A DNA stretch of 64,000 nucleotides from Dehalococcoidia bacterium (GCA_965208625.1 OZ242348.1:1233948-1297947); one strand, 5' to 3'. Shown: positions 11,486 through 46,666, numbered from the stretch's first letter. Notes: generated from the sequence alone by a model not told the origin. Program-made: numbers and translations.

Positions 11486-12925
11486 ATGAGCTTCCGGTGT
11501 AGTACATCACCTGTAGTTGCGGCTGCGTTGGCGTTGCTAACCGCCGCCTGCGGAAGCGGAACCTCCGCACCAAACACGTCAACTGTTGATGTGCCTCGCG
11601 CAACAGCTACGCCTATCACTCAGGCAACCGTTGATCAGCAGGAAGCAACCCGAGAAGCACCAATCGGGGAACCAACCGCACCAGTAGACTCTGCGCTCTC
11701 TGTGCCAGTGCGCTTGGTTAAGGTGTTTGACGGAGATTCCGGCATCGCAGCCGACAGCCAAGGAGAGTTCGAATTTAGACTCTATGGAATAGACGCGCCG
11801 GAACGTGATGACATCTCTCGTGACGCGCTGAACCGGTTGATCTCTGAATTCGGGAACGACCTTTACGCTGAAGATAGAGACGTGGACATATATGGGCGAA
11901 GAGTAATTTTACTCCGCACTCAGGACGGTTCGCGCGTAGTCAATCTTGAGATGGTAAGGAGGGGTTACGCGGAACCCTACATCGTGTATGGCGAACTCGA
12001 AGGCGTTTTCGATGCTGCCGCAGAGGCAAGAGCAGACCAACGTGGCGTCTGGGGGCCAACTCCAACGGCTACACCGAAGGTAGGTCTTACGTCCCGCCAG
12101 GAAGAGATACTTGGCTCCGTCCGCCGCAGTTCGTCATTGACCAATCAGCGTTTATGGCAGTTGACCTACGAATTCATCAATGAGGGAAGGTCTGGAAGTT
12201 ACGATGATGGATATGCCGTGGGCTACGCTGACGGTTCCAACTGCGATGCGCTGCTTCTCCTAGCGCAACGTCTGATGAACTCATCACACCCGGCGCTGGG
12301 AGACAATGTCCTTGCGGTTGTCGTGGACTACTTTGGCGAACGGTCTGCCTCAGCTTATGCGGAAGGCTACGTAGATGGTTACAGGGGCGGTCGCGGCTGC
12401 ACACCATGGAATGACATCTCTCCGCATACCCAACTCTCAGCGACCGAAGAAGGGCGCCTCGAAGTTCATGGAAACGCCCTTGCGGCCTCCAGTATGTATA
12501 ACCGAGCCAATCAAAGTGTCCAGCAATTTCTACATCACCTCTTCGGCGCTCTTAATGCTGAGTATGTGGCAACCGCCATACTCAATCCCAATGCAGATGG
12601 TCCTACCTTCCGCGATTACGCTCATTCACATTTGGGTGGAGAAGGGCTTCGTGACCGAGCTTGGTGGAAGAACACTTTCGATTCTCTGCGGAACACTTAC
12701 AGCAACCCGAGTACCCGTTTGTCCGGGAGCCAACAGGCTGCATTGGACGAATTTCATGACCAAGCGCTGCACCTGTACACTCAGGCGCTTGAAGCCTGTT
12801 GGCCGGGAATGAGAGGCTACATCCCAGACCACGTAGACAGAACATACAGAGCGGCACGAGACTCCAACCCTGCCATTGGCCCTTGGGAGTTCGTCAGCCA
12901 GCAGGAGCACCCGTGTCCGAGTTGA
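11486..12925 (+). CDS. lipoprotein with a staphylococcal (thermo)nuclease domain and a ~280-aa C-terminal region of unknown function
   Basis: Lipobox LLTAAC at the N-terminus. SNase-like core VKVFDGDSGI...FRLYGIDAPE...YGRRVILL...EMVRRGYA...ADQRGVWG. Visibly lower GC and more A/T-ending codons than the flanks. Confidence 0.8.
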   Translation: MSFRCSTSPVVAAALALLTAACGSGTSAPNTSTVDVPRATATPITQATVDQQEATREAPIGEPTAPVDSALSVPVRLVKVFDGDSGIAADSQGEFEFRLYGIDAPERDDISRDALNRLISEFGNDLYAEDRDVDIYGRRVILLRTQDGSRVVNLEMVRRGYAEPYIVYGELEGVFDAAAEARADQRGVWGPTPTATPKVGLTSRQEEILGSVRRSSSLTNQRLWQLTYEFINEGRSGSYDDGYAVGYADGSNCDALLLLAQRLMNSSHPALGDNVLAVVVDYFGERSASAYAEGYVDGYRGGRGCTPWNDISPHTQLSATEEGRLEVHGNALAASSMYNRANQSVQQFLHHLFGALNAEYVATAILNPNADGPTFRDYAHSHLGGEGLRDRAWWKNTFDSLRNTYSNPSTRLSGSQQAALDEFHDQALHLYTQALEACWPGMRGYIPDHVDRTYRAARDSNPAIGPWEFVSQQEHPCPS

Positions 12926-37132: not shown

Positions 37133-38242
37133 ATGGTTAACGTCGACGGGGACACGCACTACTGGCCGACCCGGATGCTCGACCGGGTGACGCACCCGGG
37201 CAAGGGTGAAGTGCGCATCTACGATGGAGCAGCCGACTACATCCGCGATGGGAAGGCCATCTGGGAGCGCATCCCGGAGGGCCGATGGAACCTCGAGAAG
37301 CGCTATGCCGTCATGGACCGGGATGGCTTCGATCTCCAGGTCCTGATCCCCGACAACCGGCCGCTCCCTTACGAGGTGGAGCCCGAGCTTGGACGCCAGC
37401 TCGCGATCGCGTACAACGATACGGTTGCTGAGGACATCGCCGAGTATGACCGCTTCATCGGCGTTGCCTGGGTCTATCTCCCCGACGTCGAGGCGTCCGT
37501 GCGTGAGGTCCGCCGCGCCGTGGAGGAACTTGGACTGCAGGCCGTGAAGGTCATGGGGGCGTTCGGAGACCTCCACCTCAGCGACAAACGACTGTGGCCT
37601 TTCTACGAGGAGGTGGAGCGGCTGGACATCCCGGTGCTGGTCCACCCGGTGGCCGGCGTCGCTCAGAACCGGTTCTTCGCAACAGATACGCGAGTCGCGA
37701 ACCGCCCGGACCTCCTGGGAGTCGGGGCTCTGGGCCTGCCGTTCGAATACATGGCCGAGATCGCTCGGCTCGTATTCAGCGGCGTGTTCGACGAGTTTCC
37801 AACGCTCCGGCTCGGCTTCTTCGAGGGCGGCGTCGGATGGGTGCCGTTCCTGATGAACCGGCTGGACCACTCGATGTTGCGCGGGCACGAGGAAGAGCCG
37901 AACCCGAGGCATACGCTCGATCAGGGGCCGGAGACACTGCTCAGGAAGCCCAGCGAGTACTTCGAACAGATATACGTGGCAGCCGTCTCCTGGGAGACGT
38001 ACCTGCCGGAGATCCTCGCGCTGTGGCCCAACCACAACGTCATCATCGGCAGCGACTACGACCACGGGGACGCCATCGCGACGTGGCCGAGGACGATCGA
38101 GGGGCTCGACAACATCCCCGGCCTGTCGCCGGAAGACCGGCGCAAGATCCTGAGCGACAACGCCAGCCGGTTGTTCGGGTTCGACCGTCACCCGGAGCGC
38201 CTGCCGTCCGGGCGACTTCGCGCATCACCGACTCCGGCGTAG
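37133..38242 (+). CDS. amidohydrolase-2 (ACMSD/LigW-type) family metal-dependent hydrolase or decarboxylase
   Basis: 369 aa. N-terminal VDGDTHYW, central VLVHP, C-terminal VIIGSDYDHGD. Lies 48 nt downstream of Rieske paralog 4. Confidence 0.85.
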   Translation: MVNVDGDTHYWPTRMLDRVTHPGKGEVRIYDGAADYIRDGKAIWERIPEGRWNLEKRYAVMDRDGFDLQVLIPDNRPLPYEVEPELGRQLAIAYNDTVAEDIAEYDRFIGVAWVYLPDVEASVREVRRAVEELGLQAVKVMGAFGDLHLSDKRLWPFYEEVERLDIPVLVHPVAGVAQNRFFATDTRVANRPDLLGVGALGLPFEYMAEIARLVFSGVFDEFPTLRLGFFEGGVGWVPFLMNRLDHSMLRGHEEEPNPRHTLDQGPETLLRKPSEYFEQIYVAAVSWETYLPEILALWPNHNVIIGSDYDHGDAIATWPRTIEGLDNIPGLSPEDRRKILSDNASRLFGFDRHPERLPSGRLRASPTPA

Positions 38243-38259
38243 CGTCCGGCGTTCGGGGG

Positions 38260-38300
38260 CCCGAGAGATGCTTCGGCTCTGCTCAGCATGACACATCCCA
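38260..38300. repeat. intergenic repeat family B, copy 1 (CCCGAGAGA-N-GCTTCGG-N4-GCTCAGCATGACA...)
   Basis: About 34 of 41 positions match 46527-46567, including an exact 13-mer GCTCAGCATGACA. Both copies sit just 3' of a plus-strand gene. Confidence 0.6.
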
Positions 38301-38373
38301 TGCCTGACCACTGCAGGGCGCCCATGAAGGACGCCCTACAGCAGTCAGCGCCTCCAGTCCCACCGGTTCACCC

Positions 38374-38841
38374 TCACTTCCGCATCAAGTGTGAGACAGA
38401 CTCCGGCTCCATCCCTTCGAGGGAGCGGGCGATGCGCGACATGAGCCAGGGGCCATCGCGCTCGTCACCGGCGGGGCCGCCGAAGGTGCGGCGGGGTTTC
38501 AGGAGGGGTTCACGCATAGGACAGGCGCAGGTCTCACCTTGCAACCCCATGAGGTTGGCCTCCGCGTAGCCGTGGACGATGGCAGTGATGACGCGGGTGG
38601 GATCCGGGGTGCGTCTGTTGCGGGCGCATTGCTTCAGGTAGGCGTCGATGGGCGCAAAGGCCAGCACCGGGGCGGAAACGCGGATGGCGGCCTCGATGAG
38701 ATCAAAGACCTCCGGCAAGGGTTCCTCCTGATCCAGAGCCTGCTGCCAGCGGTCCGCGAAGTTCTCGGCGACGGGCAAGAGAGCGGCCTGGGCGCGGAGG
38801 CAGGCGAGGTAGCGTTCCAGCGTCTTGAGGCGGGCGGTCAC
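38374..38841 (-). CDS. hypothetical protein
   Basis: 155-aa ORF whose start overlaps the stop of the upstream HTH gene by 4 nt. No family recognised. Confidence 0.5.
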   Translation of the reverse strand: MTARLKTLERYLACLRAQAALLPVAENFADRWQQALDQEEPLPEVFDLIEAAIRVSAPVLAFAPIDAYLKQCARNRRTPDPTRVITAIVHGYAEANLMGLQGETCACPMREPLLKPRRTFGGPAGDERDGPWLMSRIARSLEGMEPESVSHLMRK

Positions 38842-39290
38842 CGGGCACCGCGCTGGTTCTTCAGCATGCTGATGGCGTAGTCCATGATGTCGATCCGGTT
38901 CCGTATCTCGCTGAGTTCCTTGAGCCTGAATGCGTTCTGGAGAGCAGTCCGGACTGCGGCGTTCCGGACGTGAGGGTCGGGGCTTTCAAGGAGGTCGGCG
39001 AGGGCGATAACGCTCTTCAGGGCGAGGCCGTTGATCTCGGCGAAAGCGAGGTCGGCCACATGGCGGCGGGCCTGTTCAATCTCGGCACGGAAGTTGGGGT
39101 CCTGCATCCACCGGCTGAGGGTGTTGCGGCCGATGCGGGCGGCCTGCGCGCCCTTGCGCTGCGAAGGGGCTGAGACGATATAAGGGATCGCCAGCATCTG
39201 TTTGGGCGTGAGTTGCGCGGGCACGGGCGGCGCAGCGCCGCCTTCGCTGCTGTCGGGGTCTCGCTGAATCCTGGCTCTATCTTGCACCAT
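38838..39290 (-). CDS. helix-turn-helix protein, mobile-element/phage-like
   Basis: 150 aa. LTPKQMLAIPYIVSAPSQRKGAQAARIGRNTLSRWMQDPNFRAEIEQARR resembles HTH proteins commonly found on phage and island backbones. Confidence 0.55.
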   Translation of the reverse strand: MVQDRARIQRDPDSSEGGAAPPVPAQLTPKQMLAIPYIVSAPSQRKGAQAARIGRNTLSRWMQDPNFRAEIEQARRHVADLAFAEINGLALKSVIALADLLESPDPHVRNAAVRTALQNAFRLKELSEIRNRIDIMDYAISMLKNQRGAR

Positions 39291-39566
39291 TTGGCACCAT
39301 CCACTCTTGAATTCCGGCGTTCAAGCGGGGCCACCGCGGGGCCTTCCGAGGCCGTTTCAGGGACGGTCCGAGGGTGAACGGGGCAGGCATGGGGCCACAA
39401 CGGAGCCACCCCTCCTGCCTCCGTCCACGCGGTCCGAGCCGTGGCCCGCCGCGCCGGTCAGACCATCGTAGGGAGAGGCGCGGCGTCCGCGCAACGGGCG
39501 CGTGTCACAAATGTGACGGGGAGAAGGAAATATAATAGAAGGCCAATCACAAAGGGAGTTCAACGC

Positions 39567-40574
39567 ATGACCAGCGACTCGCTTCTTGCCCATCTCGCCT
39601 GGAGGTTCCCGGGCGCCACCGAAGACATCGCAACCGAGGCTCTCCTGTACATCCTCCGTAAGCAGGAGGGTGCTCGGACCGCCCTAGCCGAGCTGCTGAG
39701 GTCGGGCGGCGCGAACCCCGAACCGATGGACTCCTTCGACACGCAGCGCGTCTACCAGCAATCCAAGAAGCCTGACCTCGTTGCCTTCAACGGGGAGAGA
39801 GCGGTGTTGCTAGTCGAGTCGAAGTTCCAGGCTTCGCTTACTCCTCACCAGCCAAACGGATATCTCAGCCTGATGAGGGACGAGCTGCGAGAGGCCAAAA
39901 GCCTGCTCTTCATCGCCCCGGAGGCCAGGCAGAGCGGGCTGTGGGATGAGTTGTGGGAGCAGGCAGGCAAGCAGTTTGAGGTGACCGACGAGCAAACCGC
40001 AGGCGGCGTGCAGAGCGCGACCGTGGGCAACGGCGGCCTCCGGCTCATGCTGACCAGTTGGGATACACTCCTTAACTGCTTGGAGCACAGCGGAACCGAC
40101 GTAGACGGCGACCTGCGGCAGTTGAGAGGACTATGCGCTCCGGCCAGTGATGATCCGCTCCTGACAAGTGGTGTTCCAGCAAACCTGGCAGCTGTCAGTC
40201 ACTTCGAAACACTCATCAAGCGCGCCGTCGCTCTGGCCAAGGAGAGGGGATACATCAGCACGAGAGGTCTCCGACCCTCACGCTGGCAGGGCAACTATGG
40301 GAGATTTGTTTGGTTCGTGAACCCTGCGGGCCAGAGGCTGGCCGTAGCCAGAATTGGGGTTGACTTCTCCCAGACCGGGTCCCCACTCTTTCTCTTGTTC
40401 ATCGATAACCTTGGTCAGTTCACATCAGACCAGATGGAAGAAATACGTGCCCGTCTCGGGGGTGATTTGCATCTCTCCATTTCGATTCCCCCTCGAGCAG
40501 CCTACGCGGTTGCCCTCGAAGCCGTAGTCGACAAGCTGCAGGAGATTAGGGGGCGGCTCACAATCTCTGGGTAG
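39567..40574 (+). CDS. PD-(D/E)XK nuclease superfamily protein
   Basis: Start set at the ATG 39567 (GGGAG upstream). Core KKPDLVAFNGERAVLLVESKFQA supplies the D...E-x-K triad in the expected strand context. Confidence 0.55.
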   Translation: MTSDSLLAHLAWRFPGATEDIATEALLYILRKQEGARTALAELLRSGGANPEPMDSFDTQRVYQQSKKPDLVAFNGERAVLLVESKFQASLTPHQPNGYLSLMRDELREAKSLLFIAPEARQSGLWDELWEQAGKQFEVTDEQTAGGVQSATVGNGGLRLMLTSWDTLLNCLEHSGTDVDGDLRQLRGLCAPASDDPLLTSGVPANLAAVSHFETLIKRAVALAKERGYISTRGLRPSRWQGNYGRFVWFVNPAGQRLAVARIGVDFSQTGSPLFLLFIDNLGQFTSDQMEEIRARLGGDLHLSISIPPRAAYAVALEAVVDKLQEIRGRLTISG

Positions 40575-40706
40575 GGCGCTTCGACAAGGAACCCTTGAGG
40601 AGTAAGGGATCATGAACATCAATGAACTGTATCTGCCGCGCGCCCCGGAGCGGGTCTATCAGGCTGCTCCGACGTGGGGGCCATTTTCACCAGGTAGTGC
40701 CTAGCC

Positions 40707-41558
40707 ATGACCACTCCACTGCGCATACTGCCTGAGCGGCTTGTCGAGAACTTGGAGAGCGCGGCGTACCGGTACGCAGTTACTTACCCGAACATCCCGC
40801 ACTACTACACGGTCGCGAAGACGTGGGCCGATCACAAGGATGGCATGAGCGAGGAGCTCATGTGGACGGTGTGGGAGATGCGGAAGCACGACGTGATGCG
40901 TCCGTTCATGGGACGGGAGCAGTACTACCTGGACGTTAACGGCTTCTCCTACTGGACGATGGTCCCACGAGACGAGGAGACGATGCTCATCAACCGGCAG
41001 TATTCGACGCACGGCGCGTACGACTCGCCGTTCGACGCCATCGCGCACCGGTACGACGACTCGGAGAAGCCGTGGTGGGTCGTGAAGGACGAACGCGAGG
41101 CGCTATATGAGCCCGCCGCGCCGTCGAGACGGGTGCTCGACATCGGGTGTGGGACGGGGCTGCTGGCGGACTACTGCTACCGGGAGGTCGACCGCGAGCG
41201 GTACGTCGGCATCGACCCGAGTGCGGGAATGCTGGCGAAGTTCGCGCTGAAGCACCCGGACTACAGGGCGGATGCGACGCTGCTCCGCACGACGTTCGAG
41301 GACTACGAGACGCCGCTGCGGTTCGACACGATCGTCGCGATGGCGGGGTCGGCGTCGCACGTCACAGGGGTGGACGTCGTGGAGAAGGCGCAGCACCTGC
41401 TCGCGCCGGGAGGGCGCGCGTTCCTGATGTTTTACCGCGACTCCGCGGCTGCGTTCGAGCGGGTGGGGATCGAGGCGCCGCAGCTTGCGGCTACTCCGAG
41501 CGGGGCCGTGGAGGACGGGGAGTACGAGGTGGTGGAGTTCACGCGGGAGGCGGAGTAG
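40707..41558 (+). CDS. class I SAM-dependent methyltransferase with an unrecognised ~130-aa N-terminal domain
   Basis: Motif I VLDIGCGTGLLADY and post-I IDPSAGML. The N-terminal region (YPNIPHYYTVAKTW...) matches nothing I recognise. No DPPY/NPPY or PCQ DNA-methyltransferase motif seen. Confidence 0.65.
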   Translation: MTTPLRILPERLVENLESAAYRYAVTYPNIPHYYTVAKTWADHKDGMSEELMWTVWEMRKHDVMRPFMGREQYYLDVNGFSYWTMVPRDEETMLINRQYSTHGAYDSPFDAIAHRYDDSEKPWWVVKDEREALYEPAAPSRRVLDIGCGTGLLADYCYREVDRERYVGIDPSAGMLAKFALKHPDYRADATLLRTTFEDYETPLRFDTIVAMAGSASHVTGVDVVEKAQHLLAPGGRAFLMFYRDSAAAFERVGIEAPQLAATPSGAVEDGEYEVVEFTREAE

Positions 41559-41602
41559 GCGAGGCAGCACCTCCCAGCCCCGCCGGTTCACCCTCTCCCT
41601 AA

Positions 41603-41625
41603 CCCTCTCCCCTCAAGGGAGAGGG
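41603..41625. repeat. REP-like palindromic element family A, copy 1
   Basis: 9-bp stem CCCTCTCCC / GGGAGAGGG with loop CTCAA. Same stem as 43119-43142, with similar flanks (TCACCCT...CCCTCTCCCCT...GGGAGAGGGGA). Confidence 0.65.
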
Positions 41626-41703
41626 GACCGGACAGGGCACCCACCAGGGATGCCCCTACACCAGGCAGGGGGCGAGATTCCCGCCCTCGGGGGAATGACG
41701 GCG

Positions 41704-42558
41704 TTACCGCGTGGCGGGGCCGCCGTGCTGCTGCTGGCCGAGGCGATTGTAGGTGACCGGCGTCGTGACCAGCAGGCCGGCGTCGACGGGCAGGACTACG
41801 CCCGTGATCCAGCGGGCCTCGTCGCTGGCGAGGAAGACCGCGGCCCATCCGATGTCCCACGCGGTACCCTCGGTGCCGAGCACACCGGCCTCACGCCGTA
41901 TCTGGCGCAGGTCGTCGTCCATGCGAGGGGCGACCATGGGGGTGTAGACGAGGCCGGGGGCGATGCAGTTGACGCGGATGCCGTCGCGCCCGTGGTCGCC
42001 GGCCATCGACTGGGTGAGCCCGACGACCGCAGCCTTGGAGGTGGTGTACGGGGTGCTGCTGTTGGCGCGCAGCCCGGCGATGGACGAGAGGGTGATGATG
42101 GAGCCGCCCCCTCCTTTCCTCATCTCCGGTATGGCGTACTTCGAGGCGAGGACGATGCTCTTGACGTTCACCGCCATGATGTGGTCCCACTGCTCCTCAG
42201 TGACGTCGGTGACGTCGGCGCGGGTGGAGATGCCAACGTTGTTGTGGAGGATGTCCAGTCGACCGAAACGCTCGACCGCCGTCTGCACCATCGCCTCGCA
42301 GTCGGCGGCGCTCGTCACGTCGGCGGCCATGGCGAACGCAGTGCCGCCCTCGGCTTCGATCAGGCCGAGGGTCTCCTGGGCGCGATCGAGCTCGCGGTCG
42401 ACGAGAAGCACCTTTGCGCCCTCGCGCGCGAAGAGGATGGAGGCGGCCTTGCCGTTCCCGATCCCCGGGCCGCTCGATCCGGCCCCCGTTACGATTGCCA
42501 CTTTGCCTGCGAGCCTGTCTGCCACGCTACTCCTCCTCTGAGTCGCTGTCGTCGTCAA
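41704..42558 (-). CDS. short-chain dehydrogenase/reductase (SDR)
   Basis: GKVAIVTGAGSSGPGIG cofactor loop and YTTSKAAVVGLTQS active site. An alternative GTG start at 42525 would remove the overlap with the upstream small ORF. Confidence 0.9.
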   Translation of the reverse strand: MTTTATQRRSSVADRLAGKVAIVTGAGSSGPGIGNGKAASILFAREGAKVLLVDRELDRAQETLGLIEAEGGTAFAMAADVTSAADCEAMVQTAVERFGRLDILHNNVGISTRADVTDVTEEQWDHIMAVNVKSIVLASKYAIPEMRKGGGGSIITLSSIAGLRANSSTPYTTSKAAVVGLTQSMAGDHGRDGIRVNCIAPGLVYTPMVAPRMDDDLRQIRREAGVLGTEGTAWDIGWAAVFLASDEARWITGVVLPVDAGLLVTTPVTYNRLGQQQHGGPATR

Positions 42559-42838: not shown

Positions 42839-43081
42839 ATGAAGAAAGCCATCAACTTCACGATAGACGAAGGACTACTCGAACGACTGGACAGTTGCAC
42901 GGAGGTACGCGTGCGCGGACGCTCCGCGGTGGTCAGGGAGGCTCTCACCCATTACCTAGACCGAAAGATGAGCGAGGAGGAGGCCGAGGCAATCCAACGC
43001 GCTTATGAACAGGCGTACGGGCCGGGCACGCCACCCGACGAGTTGGAGGACTGGGCGGCGGAAGCAGTGTGGTTGGAGTAG
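42839..43081 (+). CDS. ribbon-helix-helix (CopG/MetJ-type) protein, antitoxin-like, no adjacent toxin
   Basis: 80 aa. MKKAINFTIDEGLLERLD...RSAVVREALTHYL is a typical RHH N-terminus. Confidence 0.65.
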   Translation: MKKAINFTIDEGLLERLDSCTEVRVRGRSAVVREALTHYLDRKMSEEEAEAIQRAYEQAYGPGTPPDELEDWAAEAVWLE

Positions 43082-43118
43082 CACGCCACCACCCTGCCCC
43101 CGCAGTACCTCACCCTAG

Positions 43119-43142
43119 CCCTCTCCCCTTGCTGGGAGAGGG
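43119..43142. repeat. REP-like palindromic element family A, copy 2
   Basis: 9-bp stem CCCTCTCCC / GGGAGAGGG with loop CTTGCT, located between convergent genes. Confidence 0.65.
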
Positions 43143-43155
43143 GATTCCCGAACGC

Positions 43156-46526: not shown

Positions 46527-46567
46527 CCCGAGAGAAGCTTCGGATCCGCTCAGCATGACAAGGCCCA
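46527..46567. repeat. intergenic repeat family B, copy 2
   Basis: See 38260-38300. Immediately 3' of the RCC1-like gene. Confidence 0.6.
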
Positions 46568-46610
46568 CGCCCCACCCCGCCTGTGTGCGCTCCGCTGTCG
46601 CGCACGCTGG

Positions 46611-46630
46611 ATTCCCGTTTTCACGGGAAT
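46611..46630. terminator. stem-loop between convergent genes (bidirectional terminator or REP-like element)
   Basis: 8-bp stem ATTCCCGT / ACGGGAAT with loop TTTC, between gene ends at 46521 (+) and 46667 (-). Confidence 0.5.
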
Positions 46631-46666
46631 GACAGAAGAGGCGGGAGAGGCGGGAGTGACGAGGTA

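Follow-up and report, generated by a model that had tools for sequence, protein, structure and literature searches.

One allele of a strain-variable, probable defence-cassette site in a Dehalococcoidia genome: a divergent predicted nuclease gene beside a non-canonical methyltransferase gene

Which unit of DNA is gained and lost at a small group of genes that bears no relation to its catabolic neighbourhood, and what that unit might do, are the questions raised by a 64,000-nucleotide stretch of a Dehalococcoidia bacterium genome (GCA_965208625.1 OZ242348.1:1233948-1297947; the whole stretch is referred to here as the window, and all coordinates are counted from its first letter). A first-pass annotation, made from the sequence alone, had described a 3.2-kb islet (38346-41600) bracketed by imperfect direct repeats of about 35 bp and read it as a small integrated element or defence islet with att-like ends, with dispersed copies of a repetitive extragenic palindromic (REP) element as a fallback explanation for the repeats. 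The four genes which it reported were present as described, and their separateness from the surrounding catabolic genes was confirmed. Comparison with relatives indicates that one allele of a probable defence-cassette site, variable between strains, is present in the window. Its genes and the variable segment are as follows (HTH, helix-turn-helix; SAM, S-adenosylmethionine):

38374-38841, minus strand: orfA, 155 amino acids, function unassigned by family searches, part of the conserved frame
38838-39290, minus strand: orfB, HTH protein of 150 amino acids, overlapping orfA by 4 bp and translationally coupled to it
39567-40574, plus strand: orfC, predicted nuclease of 335 amino acids, best start ATG at 39567 behind a GGGAG ribosome-binding site
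40707-41558, plus strand: orfD, class I SAM methyltransferase of 283 amino acids
39528-41662, plus strand: strain-variable cassette, comprising a TATAAT -10-like sequence (39531-39536), orfC, a spacer, orfD and REP modules A (short) and B

Relatives were found by means of orfC (genome scan) and by means of orfB or the neighbouring short-chain dehydrogenase/reductase (SDR) gene, the latter route not being biased towards orfC carriers. Those found through orfC carried the genes at one syntenic position, with a Rieske oxygenase gene on one side (93-97% amino acid identity) and the SDR gene on the other (93-95%); orfC itself was only 55-77% identical at the amino acid level, against 93-96% for the flanking genes. 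An empty site was found in L164, a conspecific 87-kb sponge-metagenome contig whose flanks are 94-96% identical to the window at the nucleotide level. Exactly 39528-41662 is missing from it, at a junction which joins ...GTGTCACAAATGTGACGAGAGGAAGG to GCTGCGAGATTCCCGCC... with microhomology of 3-4 nt only. The deletion removes the right repeat along with the cargo and retains orfA (98% identical), orfB (100% identical) and the left repeat (38346-38381), which lies 1.15 kb outside it. The comparison of relatives proposed in the first-pass annotation therefore did yield an empty site, but one in which about 2.1 kb varies and not the 3.2-kb unit.

Other relatives carry different genes at the same point. 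L161 (90% nucleotide identity) is collinear with the window as far as 39521, and collinearity resumes at the orfD start codon; orfC (from 39522) is replaced by a gene for a 581-amino acid GmrSD protein (Pfam GmrSD_N, 4e-29; PADLOC HEC-05, 5e-204), HEC-05 being BrxU-like according to the preprint that defined it (bioRxiv 10.1101/2024.01.29.577857). L163, with flanks 96.5% identical at the nucleotide level, encodes a 744-amino acid GmrSD-family protein (PADLOC Orf5, 2.6e-157; HEC-06, 3e-62) together with a divergent orfD allele (85% nucleotide identity) and a small membrane protein. GmrSD_N (DUF262) and DUF1524/HNH domains, present in both of these replacements, were absent from the window proteins. 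An extra PDDEXK_4 gene (PADLOC PDC-S26, 1e-89) occupies the site in L009 and L006, which are more distantly related, and further additions at the same point consist of a zinc-ribbon ORF (open reading frame) in L002 and L009, a zinc-ribbon-methyltransferase paralogue in L006 and a 234-amino acid gene of unknown function in L005. At least five states of the site, the empty one included, were observed, and all left cassette breakpoints fell at 39519-39555, within about 40 bp after a palindrome, GTCACAAATGTGAC.

Because of the L164 deletion and the replacements behind the palindrome, the unit of gain and loss is taken to be the nuclease-methyltransferase cargo and not the four-gene stretch. The earlier notion of a defence islet accordingly survives for the cargo, since relatives carry defence nucleases at the same site, but not for a four-gene unit, as orfA and orfB belong to the frame. 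No integrase was detected among the four window proteins (Pfam, PADLOC, PHROG and NCBIfam) and none is annotated within +/-10 kb in L161, in agreement with the first reading. Precise exchange behind a conserved palindrome with no recombinase gene nearby bears on defence hotspots in uncultivated symbionts; the contigs MKWU... and LXNJ... derive from marine sponge metagenomes, and the studies describing these metagenomes found defence features to be enriched in sponge symbionts (PMC5099237, PMC5649159).

The prediction that orfC encodes a PD-(D/E)XK nuclease was borne out by invariant core residues, by matches of family members to PDDEXK_4 and by weak structural matches to restriction-endonuclease folds. 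The predicted protein consists of an N-terminal PD-(D/E)XK domain, a disordered linker (residues 194-209) and a hypervariable C-terminal alpha/beta domain, and residues E19, D70, E84-x-K86 and Q95xxxY99 are invariant in 37 family members (alignment A1). The family comprises more than 100 clustered proteins, with homologues at no fewer than 250 loci in many phyla, in bacteria that appear to be mostly associated with sponges. The orfC protein itself had no match in Pfam, PADLOC, PHROGs or NCBIfam (none to PDDEXK_4 at E<=1); 8 of the 37 family members matched Pfam PDDEXK_4 (PF14281) weakly (best E 5.4e-4), and members also matched VRR_NUC and HSDR_N. Alignment with a bona fide PDDEXK_4 protein using hhalign brought D...ExK...QxxxY...P..R into register (E 0.013, 56 core columns), and a search of the family profile against PDB sequences returned noise only. 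For the AlphaFold2 model (predicted local distance difference test, pLDDT, 84), the best PDB matches found with Foldseek were EcoT38I, a 'restriction endonuclease-like fold' protein, YaeQ and VC1899. These results support the assignment of orfC as a putative divergent PD-(D/E)XK nuclease on a remote branch near PDDEXK_4. For most close homologues identity is 77-81% in the N-terminal domain and 40-52% in the C-terminal domain, the exception being P0002, with about 78% in both. The less biased codon usage that had been noted by eye was evident in orfC (G+C content at third codon positions, GC3, 0.72) and weakly so in orfB (0.80) and orfA (0.83), but not in orfD, whose value of 0.89 is host-like (flanking genes, 0.85-0.93).

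In many Caldilineaceae genomes two or three paralogous homologues of orfC lie in tandem, and some of these look truncated; tandem loci were seen in L010, L017, L018, L024, L025, L031 and other Caldilineaceae/Dehalococcoidia. Many of the metagenome-assembled genomes (MAGs) with orfC homologues look sponge- or host-associated, judged from record titles and isolate names only.

The second cargo gene, orfD, had been described as coding for a SAM methyltransferase that lacks obvious DNA-methyltransferase motifs and has an unrecognised N-terminal domain, and this description of a non-canonical enzyme stands, as matches were to generic families only. Pfam assigned Methyltransf_25 (residues 143-236) and also Methyltransf_11/12/23 to a methyltransferase part spanning approximately residues 130-283. 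Residues 1-130 form a conserved domain, with the motifs PHYYT, NGxxYWTM and LINR, which had no relative in Pfam or among solved structures in the PDB; its best match in BFVD was an unnamed 93-amino acid viral protein. The AlphaFold2 model had a pLDDT of 91.7. In PADLOC, the protein matched MTase_II (E 0.031) and mad2 (E 1.2e-11), the latter in the SAM-binding region only (model positions 261-398 of 492). Membership of a MADS system was considered and rejected, as the mad2 match covers that region alone and no other mad model matches any neighbouring gene.

IMG/VR viral contigs frequently encode orfD homologues (30-38% identity) in which the N-terminal domain is included. On two unrelated IMG/VR contigs the orfD-type gene lies among genes for ParB-like, 3'-phosphoadenosine-5'-phosphosulfate (PAPS) reductase-like and DNA-methyltransferase proteins near the large terminase gene, a phage gene context which suggests that DNA is the substrate. 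The viral contigs with orfD-type genes have no orfA, orfB or orfC nearby, and neither an orfC nor an orfD homologue was found in the INPHARED set of GenBank phages (50,697 records). In L100 (8503-13706) and L107 (9986-15006) a conserved terminase-side cluster holds an orfD-type methyltransferase gene, two ParB-like genes, an unknown gene of about 180 amino acids and a PAPS-reductase-like gene, and looks like a phage DNA-modification module.

A nuclease gene next to an orfD-type gene was also encountered well beyond this site. The orfC/orfD-type pairing was seen at about 17 of 79 loci, which represent three phyla and both gene orders, the reverse order (orfD then orfC) occurring in Thermoanaerobaculia, Holophagales and Ca. 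Multivorans MAGs and in Rhodothermales. At an unrelated locus in L243, an orfD homologue (68% identity) starts within an orfC homologue (35% identity, E 3e-40), and in L245 a PDDEXK_4 gene overlaps an orfD-type methyltransferase gene by 4 bp, near SNF2/PLD and Nmad3 genes. Both GmrSD-type replacements (L161 and L163) lie directly upstream of orfD, and in L161, L243 and L245 the stop codon of the nuclease gene is overlapped by the orfD-type gene that follows. A more distant orfD homologue adjoins a Type ISP restriction enzyme gene in L246, and a PifA-like gene adjoins an orfC homologue in L027.

A small four-cysteine zinc-ribbon protein is encoded either free-standing before the nuclease gene or fused N-terminally to an orfD-type paralogue (L006 8892-10004, L002 9690-9930, L009 8473-8751, P0163 and P0168). 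Some alleles have, on the opposite strand in the interval from orfD to the SDR gene, a coiled-coil/transmembrane ORF of about 105 amino acids (L163 1132-1449, L002 about 11900-12200, L003 about 11880-12180), which the window lacks.

If the cassette ends where L164 indicates, what are the repeats that bracket the larger region? The REP-like features of the window are:

38255-38435, no strand: left REP-like composite, with module D (38261-38275), module B (38314-38335) and module A, long form (38346-38435)
41566-41700, no strand: right REP-like composite, with module A, short form (41566-41628), bearing the hairpin CCCTCTCCCCTCAAGGGAGAGGGG, module B (41633-41654) and module C (41678-41699)
39370-39382, minus strand: inverted copy of the repeat's 13-mer with one mismatch, from the 13-mer scan

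The exact 13-mer, CCGGTTCACCCTC, is present in two copies as claimed, the first at the position originally given (38363-38375) and the second at 41583-41595, one base before it. The third, inverted copy lies within the divergent orfB/orfC intergenic region; three matches with at most one mismatch in the window compare with 0.12 expected, and 0 of 100 shuffles reached three. Gapless extension of the repeat pair gave 20/22 positions, and introduction of one gap by hand brought the match to about 27-28 of 35, close to the 28 first reported. The likeness continues beyond the extent first reported, via a 24-nt indel, into the hairpin CCCTTCGAGGGAGCGGG on the left and CCCCTCAAGGGAGAGGGG on the right, and both copies end in a common hairpin, CCCTCTCCCC-loop-GGGAGAGGGG, of which the left version is degenerate. 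When the two repeats were aligned with the copies from relatives (alignment A4), a single element with long and short variants was obtained: the left copy matched a long variant that lies on the right-hand side of the L006 gene set, the match covering about 95 nt, and the right copy matched short variants in L004, L005 and L161.

This element is one module of a mosaic family, whose other modules (CCGAGAGATGCTTCG..., CAGGGCACCCAC.AGGG... and TTCCCGCC...GGGAATGAC) adjoin both repeats and recur at 46528-46633 (46528 and 46612). A further hairpin copy lies at 43098-43145, the hairpin core CTCTCCC-N5-GGGAGAG is present in six loci, and inverted repeat I8 (41591-41637) corresponds to the hairpin-forming core of the right repeat. 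In relatives, up to four tandem repeat mosaics fill the corresponding intergenic spaces, with several tandem copies in L002, and copies flank other genes in L002, L006 and L009. In L001 and L003 the same four genes stand in this position but the left repeat is absent (38254-38409 is missing from L003), and L001 lacks the right 13-mer also. All three 13-mers have drifted by 1-2 substitutions in L161 (90% identical), like the surrounding DNA, and the inverted third copy drifts at the pace of its surroundings in relatives. The cassette boundary at 41662/41663 falls between right modules B and C. An Rfam scan of 38000-42000, the repeat element included, returned no credible family.

Because of the empty site, the relatives without repeats and the dispersed copies, the repeats are not att-like; they are long and short variants of a dispersed, modular REP-like hairpin element and mark no insertion boundary, as the fallback explanation had it. 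REP/BIME (bacterial interspersed mosaic element) and MITE-like (miniature inverted-repeat transposable element) sequences are short GC-rich hairpin mosaics which occupy many intergenic sites and vary between strains. The family described here resembles them in its mosaics of short, GC-rich hairpin modules, its intergenic location downstream of genes and its variability between strains; unlike them, it is specific to this Chloroflexota lineage, and one copy is read through by the orfA frame. For genome scans, the case is a caution that short direct repeats around odd genes can be REP-like elements.

The genes and DNA to the left of the cassette constitute a separate, conserved frame, within which two further features were delimited:

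39283-39407, no strand: imperfect inverted repeat, with arms at 39283-39306 and 39380-39407
39453-39518, no strand: near-invariant block of about 65 nt, closing with the palindrome GTCACAAATGTGAC at 39504-39517 (alignment A5)

The orfA/orfB pair is a module of its own in this frame, outside the cassette. Both genes are absent from L008, which retains orfC and orfD, and in L162 a homologous orfB/orfA pair stands alone between two DDE transposase genes. The orfA protein had no match in Pfam, PADLOC, PHROG or NCBIfam; among 49 representative relatives it has a conserved core of about 117 amino acids (approximately residues 1-117), with W32, Y68, C72, P79, a VHG motif and CxCPAR (alignment A6), and its C-terminal portion of about 38 amino acids shows no conservation in the family. 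The last 38 or so orfA codons (38374-38470) are encoded in the long REP-like element (module A), on the opposite strand, and the frame appears to have lengthened into that element. Residues 27-98 of the orfB protein weakly match phage small terminase subunits (phrog_2538, E 2.6e-5), and its close homologues number only 34, all at least 64% identical. As an HTH protein encoded beside the divergent promoter region, orfB is a candidate regulator of that region.

Each arm of the inverted repeat is composed of tandem sequences of about 8 nt with a 10-bp period, the left arm covering the orfB start codon. Of the cells in its 20 pairs across nine loci, 90.6% were paired, compared to about 41% in slid controls, and four pairs showed compensatory double changes. 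Such a pattern would be expected either of operator iterons co-evolving with a binding protein or of a helix in the orfB mRNA leader. The block of about 65 nt is almost invariant in the same number of loci, in which the adjoining genes differ by about 22%, and with its palindrome, beyond which the variable slot begins, it is probably an operator or promoter-upstream element. With z-scores of -1.2 and -2.6, the folding of a conserved 91-nt block is unconvincing as evidence of an RNA structure.

The site was compared with known arrangements. It resembles the loci of Payne et al. (bioRxiv 10.1101/2024.01.29.577857) at which defence genes are embedded or swapped ('guilt by embedding') in that its alternative alleles strongly match HEC-05, Orf5/HEC-06 and PDC-S26 and in that the replacing genes are co-oriented with the downstream methyltransferase gene, a usual feature of embedded genes (bioRxiv 10.1101/2024.01.29.577857). 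It differs in that the frame is not Hma, BREX, DISARM or Type I restriction-modification (R-M) but an HTH/orfA pair plus a non-canonical methyltransferase, and in that orfC belongs to no PADLOC family. A Type II R-M system with a controller (C) protein would likewise place a PD-(D/E)XK nuclease beside a SAM methyltransferase and an HTH protein, with a palindrome upstream of the nuclease gene; however, C proteins are of about 80 amino acids, unlike the 150-amino acid, small-terminase-like orfB product, and orfC homologues often stand alone. A canonical Type II R-M system was rejected, as orfD has no N6, N4 or C5 DNA-methyltransferase family signature. The orfC protein shares its residue order with PDDEXK_4 (PF14281)/PDC-S26, and both are encoded directly upstream of an orfD-type methyltransferase, but the window protein falls below every threshold and the C-terminal domains are unrelated; PDDEXK_4 and orfC genes stand side by side in L006 and L009, so the two are not simple alleles of each other.

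In Streptococcus pneumoniae, alternative DpnI or DpnII restriction cassettes occupy one chromosomal locus. As there, non-homologous restriction-type cassettes are found here at one site with conserved flanks in strains of one species and with no integrase. In contrast to DpnI/DpnII, the present site has at least five states, one of them empty, a shared methyltransferase persists across some swaps, and the function of the cassettes is a prediction from sequence.

Taken as a whole, the locus is probably a chromosomal defence-cassette hotspot in a sponge-associated member of the Chloroflexota, whose cargo, the orfC nuclease and the orfD methyltransferase, would have an R-M-like role. The frame would consist of orfA, orfB, the iteron-like divergent region and the near-invariant block with its palindrome, followed by a cargo slot before the SDR gene. 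The orfC product would be an effector cutting invading DNA, its variable C-terminal domain setting recognition, and orfD would mark or protect self by a modification, most likely of DNA. The orfB protein, bound to the palindrome or the iterons, would control expression, and recombination between the conserved frame, to the left, and the SDR/REP region, to the right, would swap one cassette for another. The pair may work through R-M-like self-marking, or as a solitary Type IV-like nuclease accompanied by an independent methyltransferase. A more specific proposal, put forward tentatively as a lesser possibility, is that the orfD-type methyltransferase, whose novel N-terminal domain recurs in phage DNA-modification gene clusters, together with interchangeable and unrelated nucleases (the orfC family, PDDEXK_4/PDC-S26, BrxU-like GmrSD and Orf5/HEC-06-like GmrSD) behind a fixed, orfB-controlled operator constitutes an undescribed modification-restriction system.

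A number of results weigh against an R-M-like role for the pair. The Foldseek matches of orfC are weak (best E 0.018, TM-score 0.20), no PADLOC model matches the window orfC or orfD beyond the generic SAM domain (mad2), and a scan for the σ70 consensus detected no promoter. Pfam and NCBIfam placed orfD in generic class I families only, with no DNA-methyltransferase family, and the 50 PDB structures nearest to it are small-molecule (N-, O-, C- and sugar), protein and RNA methyltransferases. At about 60 of the 79 orfC loci an orfD-type gene is lacking from the surrounding 6 kb, and some orfC homologues are in tandem arrays; such frequent solo occurrence is not expected for a classical restriction enzyme that needs a cognate methylase. 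Among the neighbours of homologues elsewhere, 1 of 10 sampled had a PADLOC match. GmrSD/BrxU-type nucleases are, moreover, usually modification-dependent and need no methylase.

Several observations would suit a slot that collects solitary Type IV-like nucleases, orfC included, with orfD as a resident phage-derived methyltransferase that is a neighbour and not a partner. L161 exchanges orfC for a GmrSD/BrxU-type enzyme and keeps orfD, most orfC homologues are solo or in tandem, orfD has host-like GC3 where orfC does not, and orfD homologues stand alone in phage contigs. This explanation is nevertheless regarded as rather unlikely, given the adjacency of orfC-like and orfD-like genes in both orders, in three phyla and at unrelated loci, the overlaps of orfD-type starts with nuclease stop codons (L161, L243, L245), the conspecific L164 deletion that takes both genes, and the change of the orfD allele along with the nuclease in L163. 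That the genes are a decayed prophage or phage-satellite remnant with no current defence role would account for the weak match of orfB to small terminase subunit families and for IMG/VR orfD-type genes situated a few genes from a large terminase gene; it is very unlikely, as the region holds no other phage genes, all four reading frames remain intact, with conservation across species-level divergence, none of the 50,697 GenBank phage records matched, and the alternative alleles are defence nucleases and not phage structural or replication genes.

Site-specific integration of a four-gene 3.2-kb islet (38346-41600), with the direct repeats of about 35 bp as attL and attR, is highly improbable. 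The repeats are real and improbable by chance, the genes between them are unrelated to the neighbourhood, and L006 too has its whole gene set between directly oriented repeats of the same family; but L164 loses 39528-41662 only and keeps orfA, orfB and the left repeat, L001 and L003 hold the same genes in the same place without that repeat, the repeats belong to a dispersed modular family (copy at 43098-43145, tandem copies in L002), and an integrase is lacking both from the four proteins and from the annotated +/-10 kb in L161. Least probable of all is a housekeeping or catabolic accessory function, in which a repair-type nuclease and a small-molecule methyltransferase would serve the aromatic-degradation cluster: the closest orfD structures are small-molecule methyltransferases and the neighbourhood is catabolic, yet conspecific strains differ in whether they carry the genes, GmrSD-type restriction enzymes take their place in relatives, orfC is of atypical composition, and the pair recurs in unrelated neighbourhoods and phyla.

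The orfC/orfD pair is not in current defence catalogues. On the reading of the locus as a defence-cassette hotspot, the site provides 'guilt by position' evidence for two uncharacterised families as candidate anti-phage components, and suggests that an orfD-like methyltransferase, unlike known DNA methylases, is repeatedly coupled to four kinds of nuclease. If orfD does methylate DNA, this would represent a new R-M partnership and a new DNA-modifying family shared with phages.

The remaining observations concern the spacer within the cassette and the genes on either side of the site:

40575-40706, plus strand: spacer of 132 bp between orfC and orfD, with a 30-codon ORF (40612-40704) and a short hairpin (inverted repeats I13 and I18)

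The 30-codon ORF has a good ribosome-binding site; it was considered as a further gene and is probably not real, as it lies in an insert, the 132-bp spacer, that is missing from L001, and has no family match. A stretch related to the spacer seems to be read as a C-terminal extension in the orfC homologue P0005. On the left of the site, an amidohydrolase gene (37133-38242) is shared by the window with L161, L163, L164 and L003, but L001, L002, L005, L006, L008 and L009 lack it, REP-like mosaics filling the gap in some of the latter. On the right, a ribbon-helix-helix (RHH) antitoxin-like gene (42839-43081) has no partner toxin gene in the window. In L161 (4882-5405) a PemK/MazF toxin gene follows the RHH antitoxin-like gene; the corresponding space in the window is a 74-bp stretch with the REP-like hairpin at 43098-43145, and the same probably holds for L164, where a gap of about 80 bp was seen.

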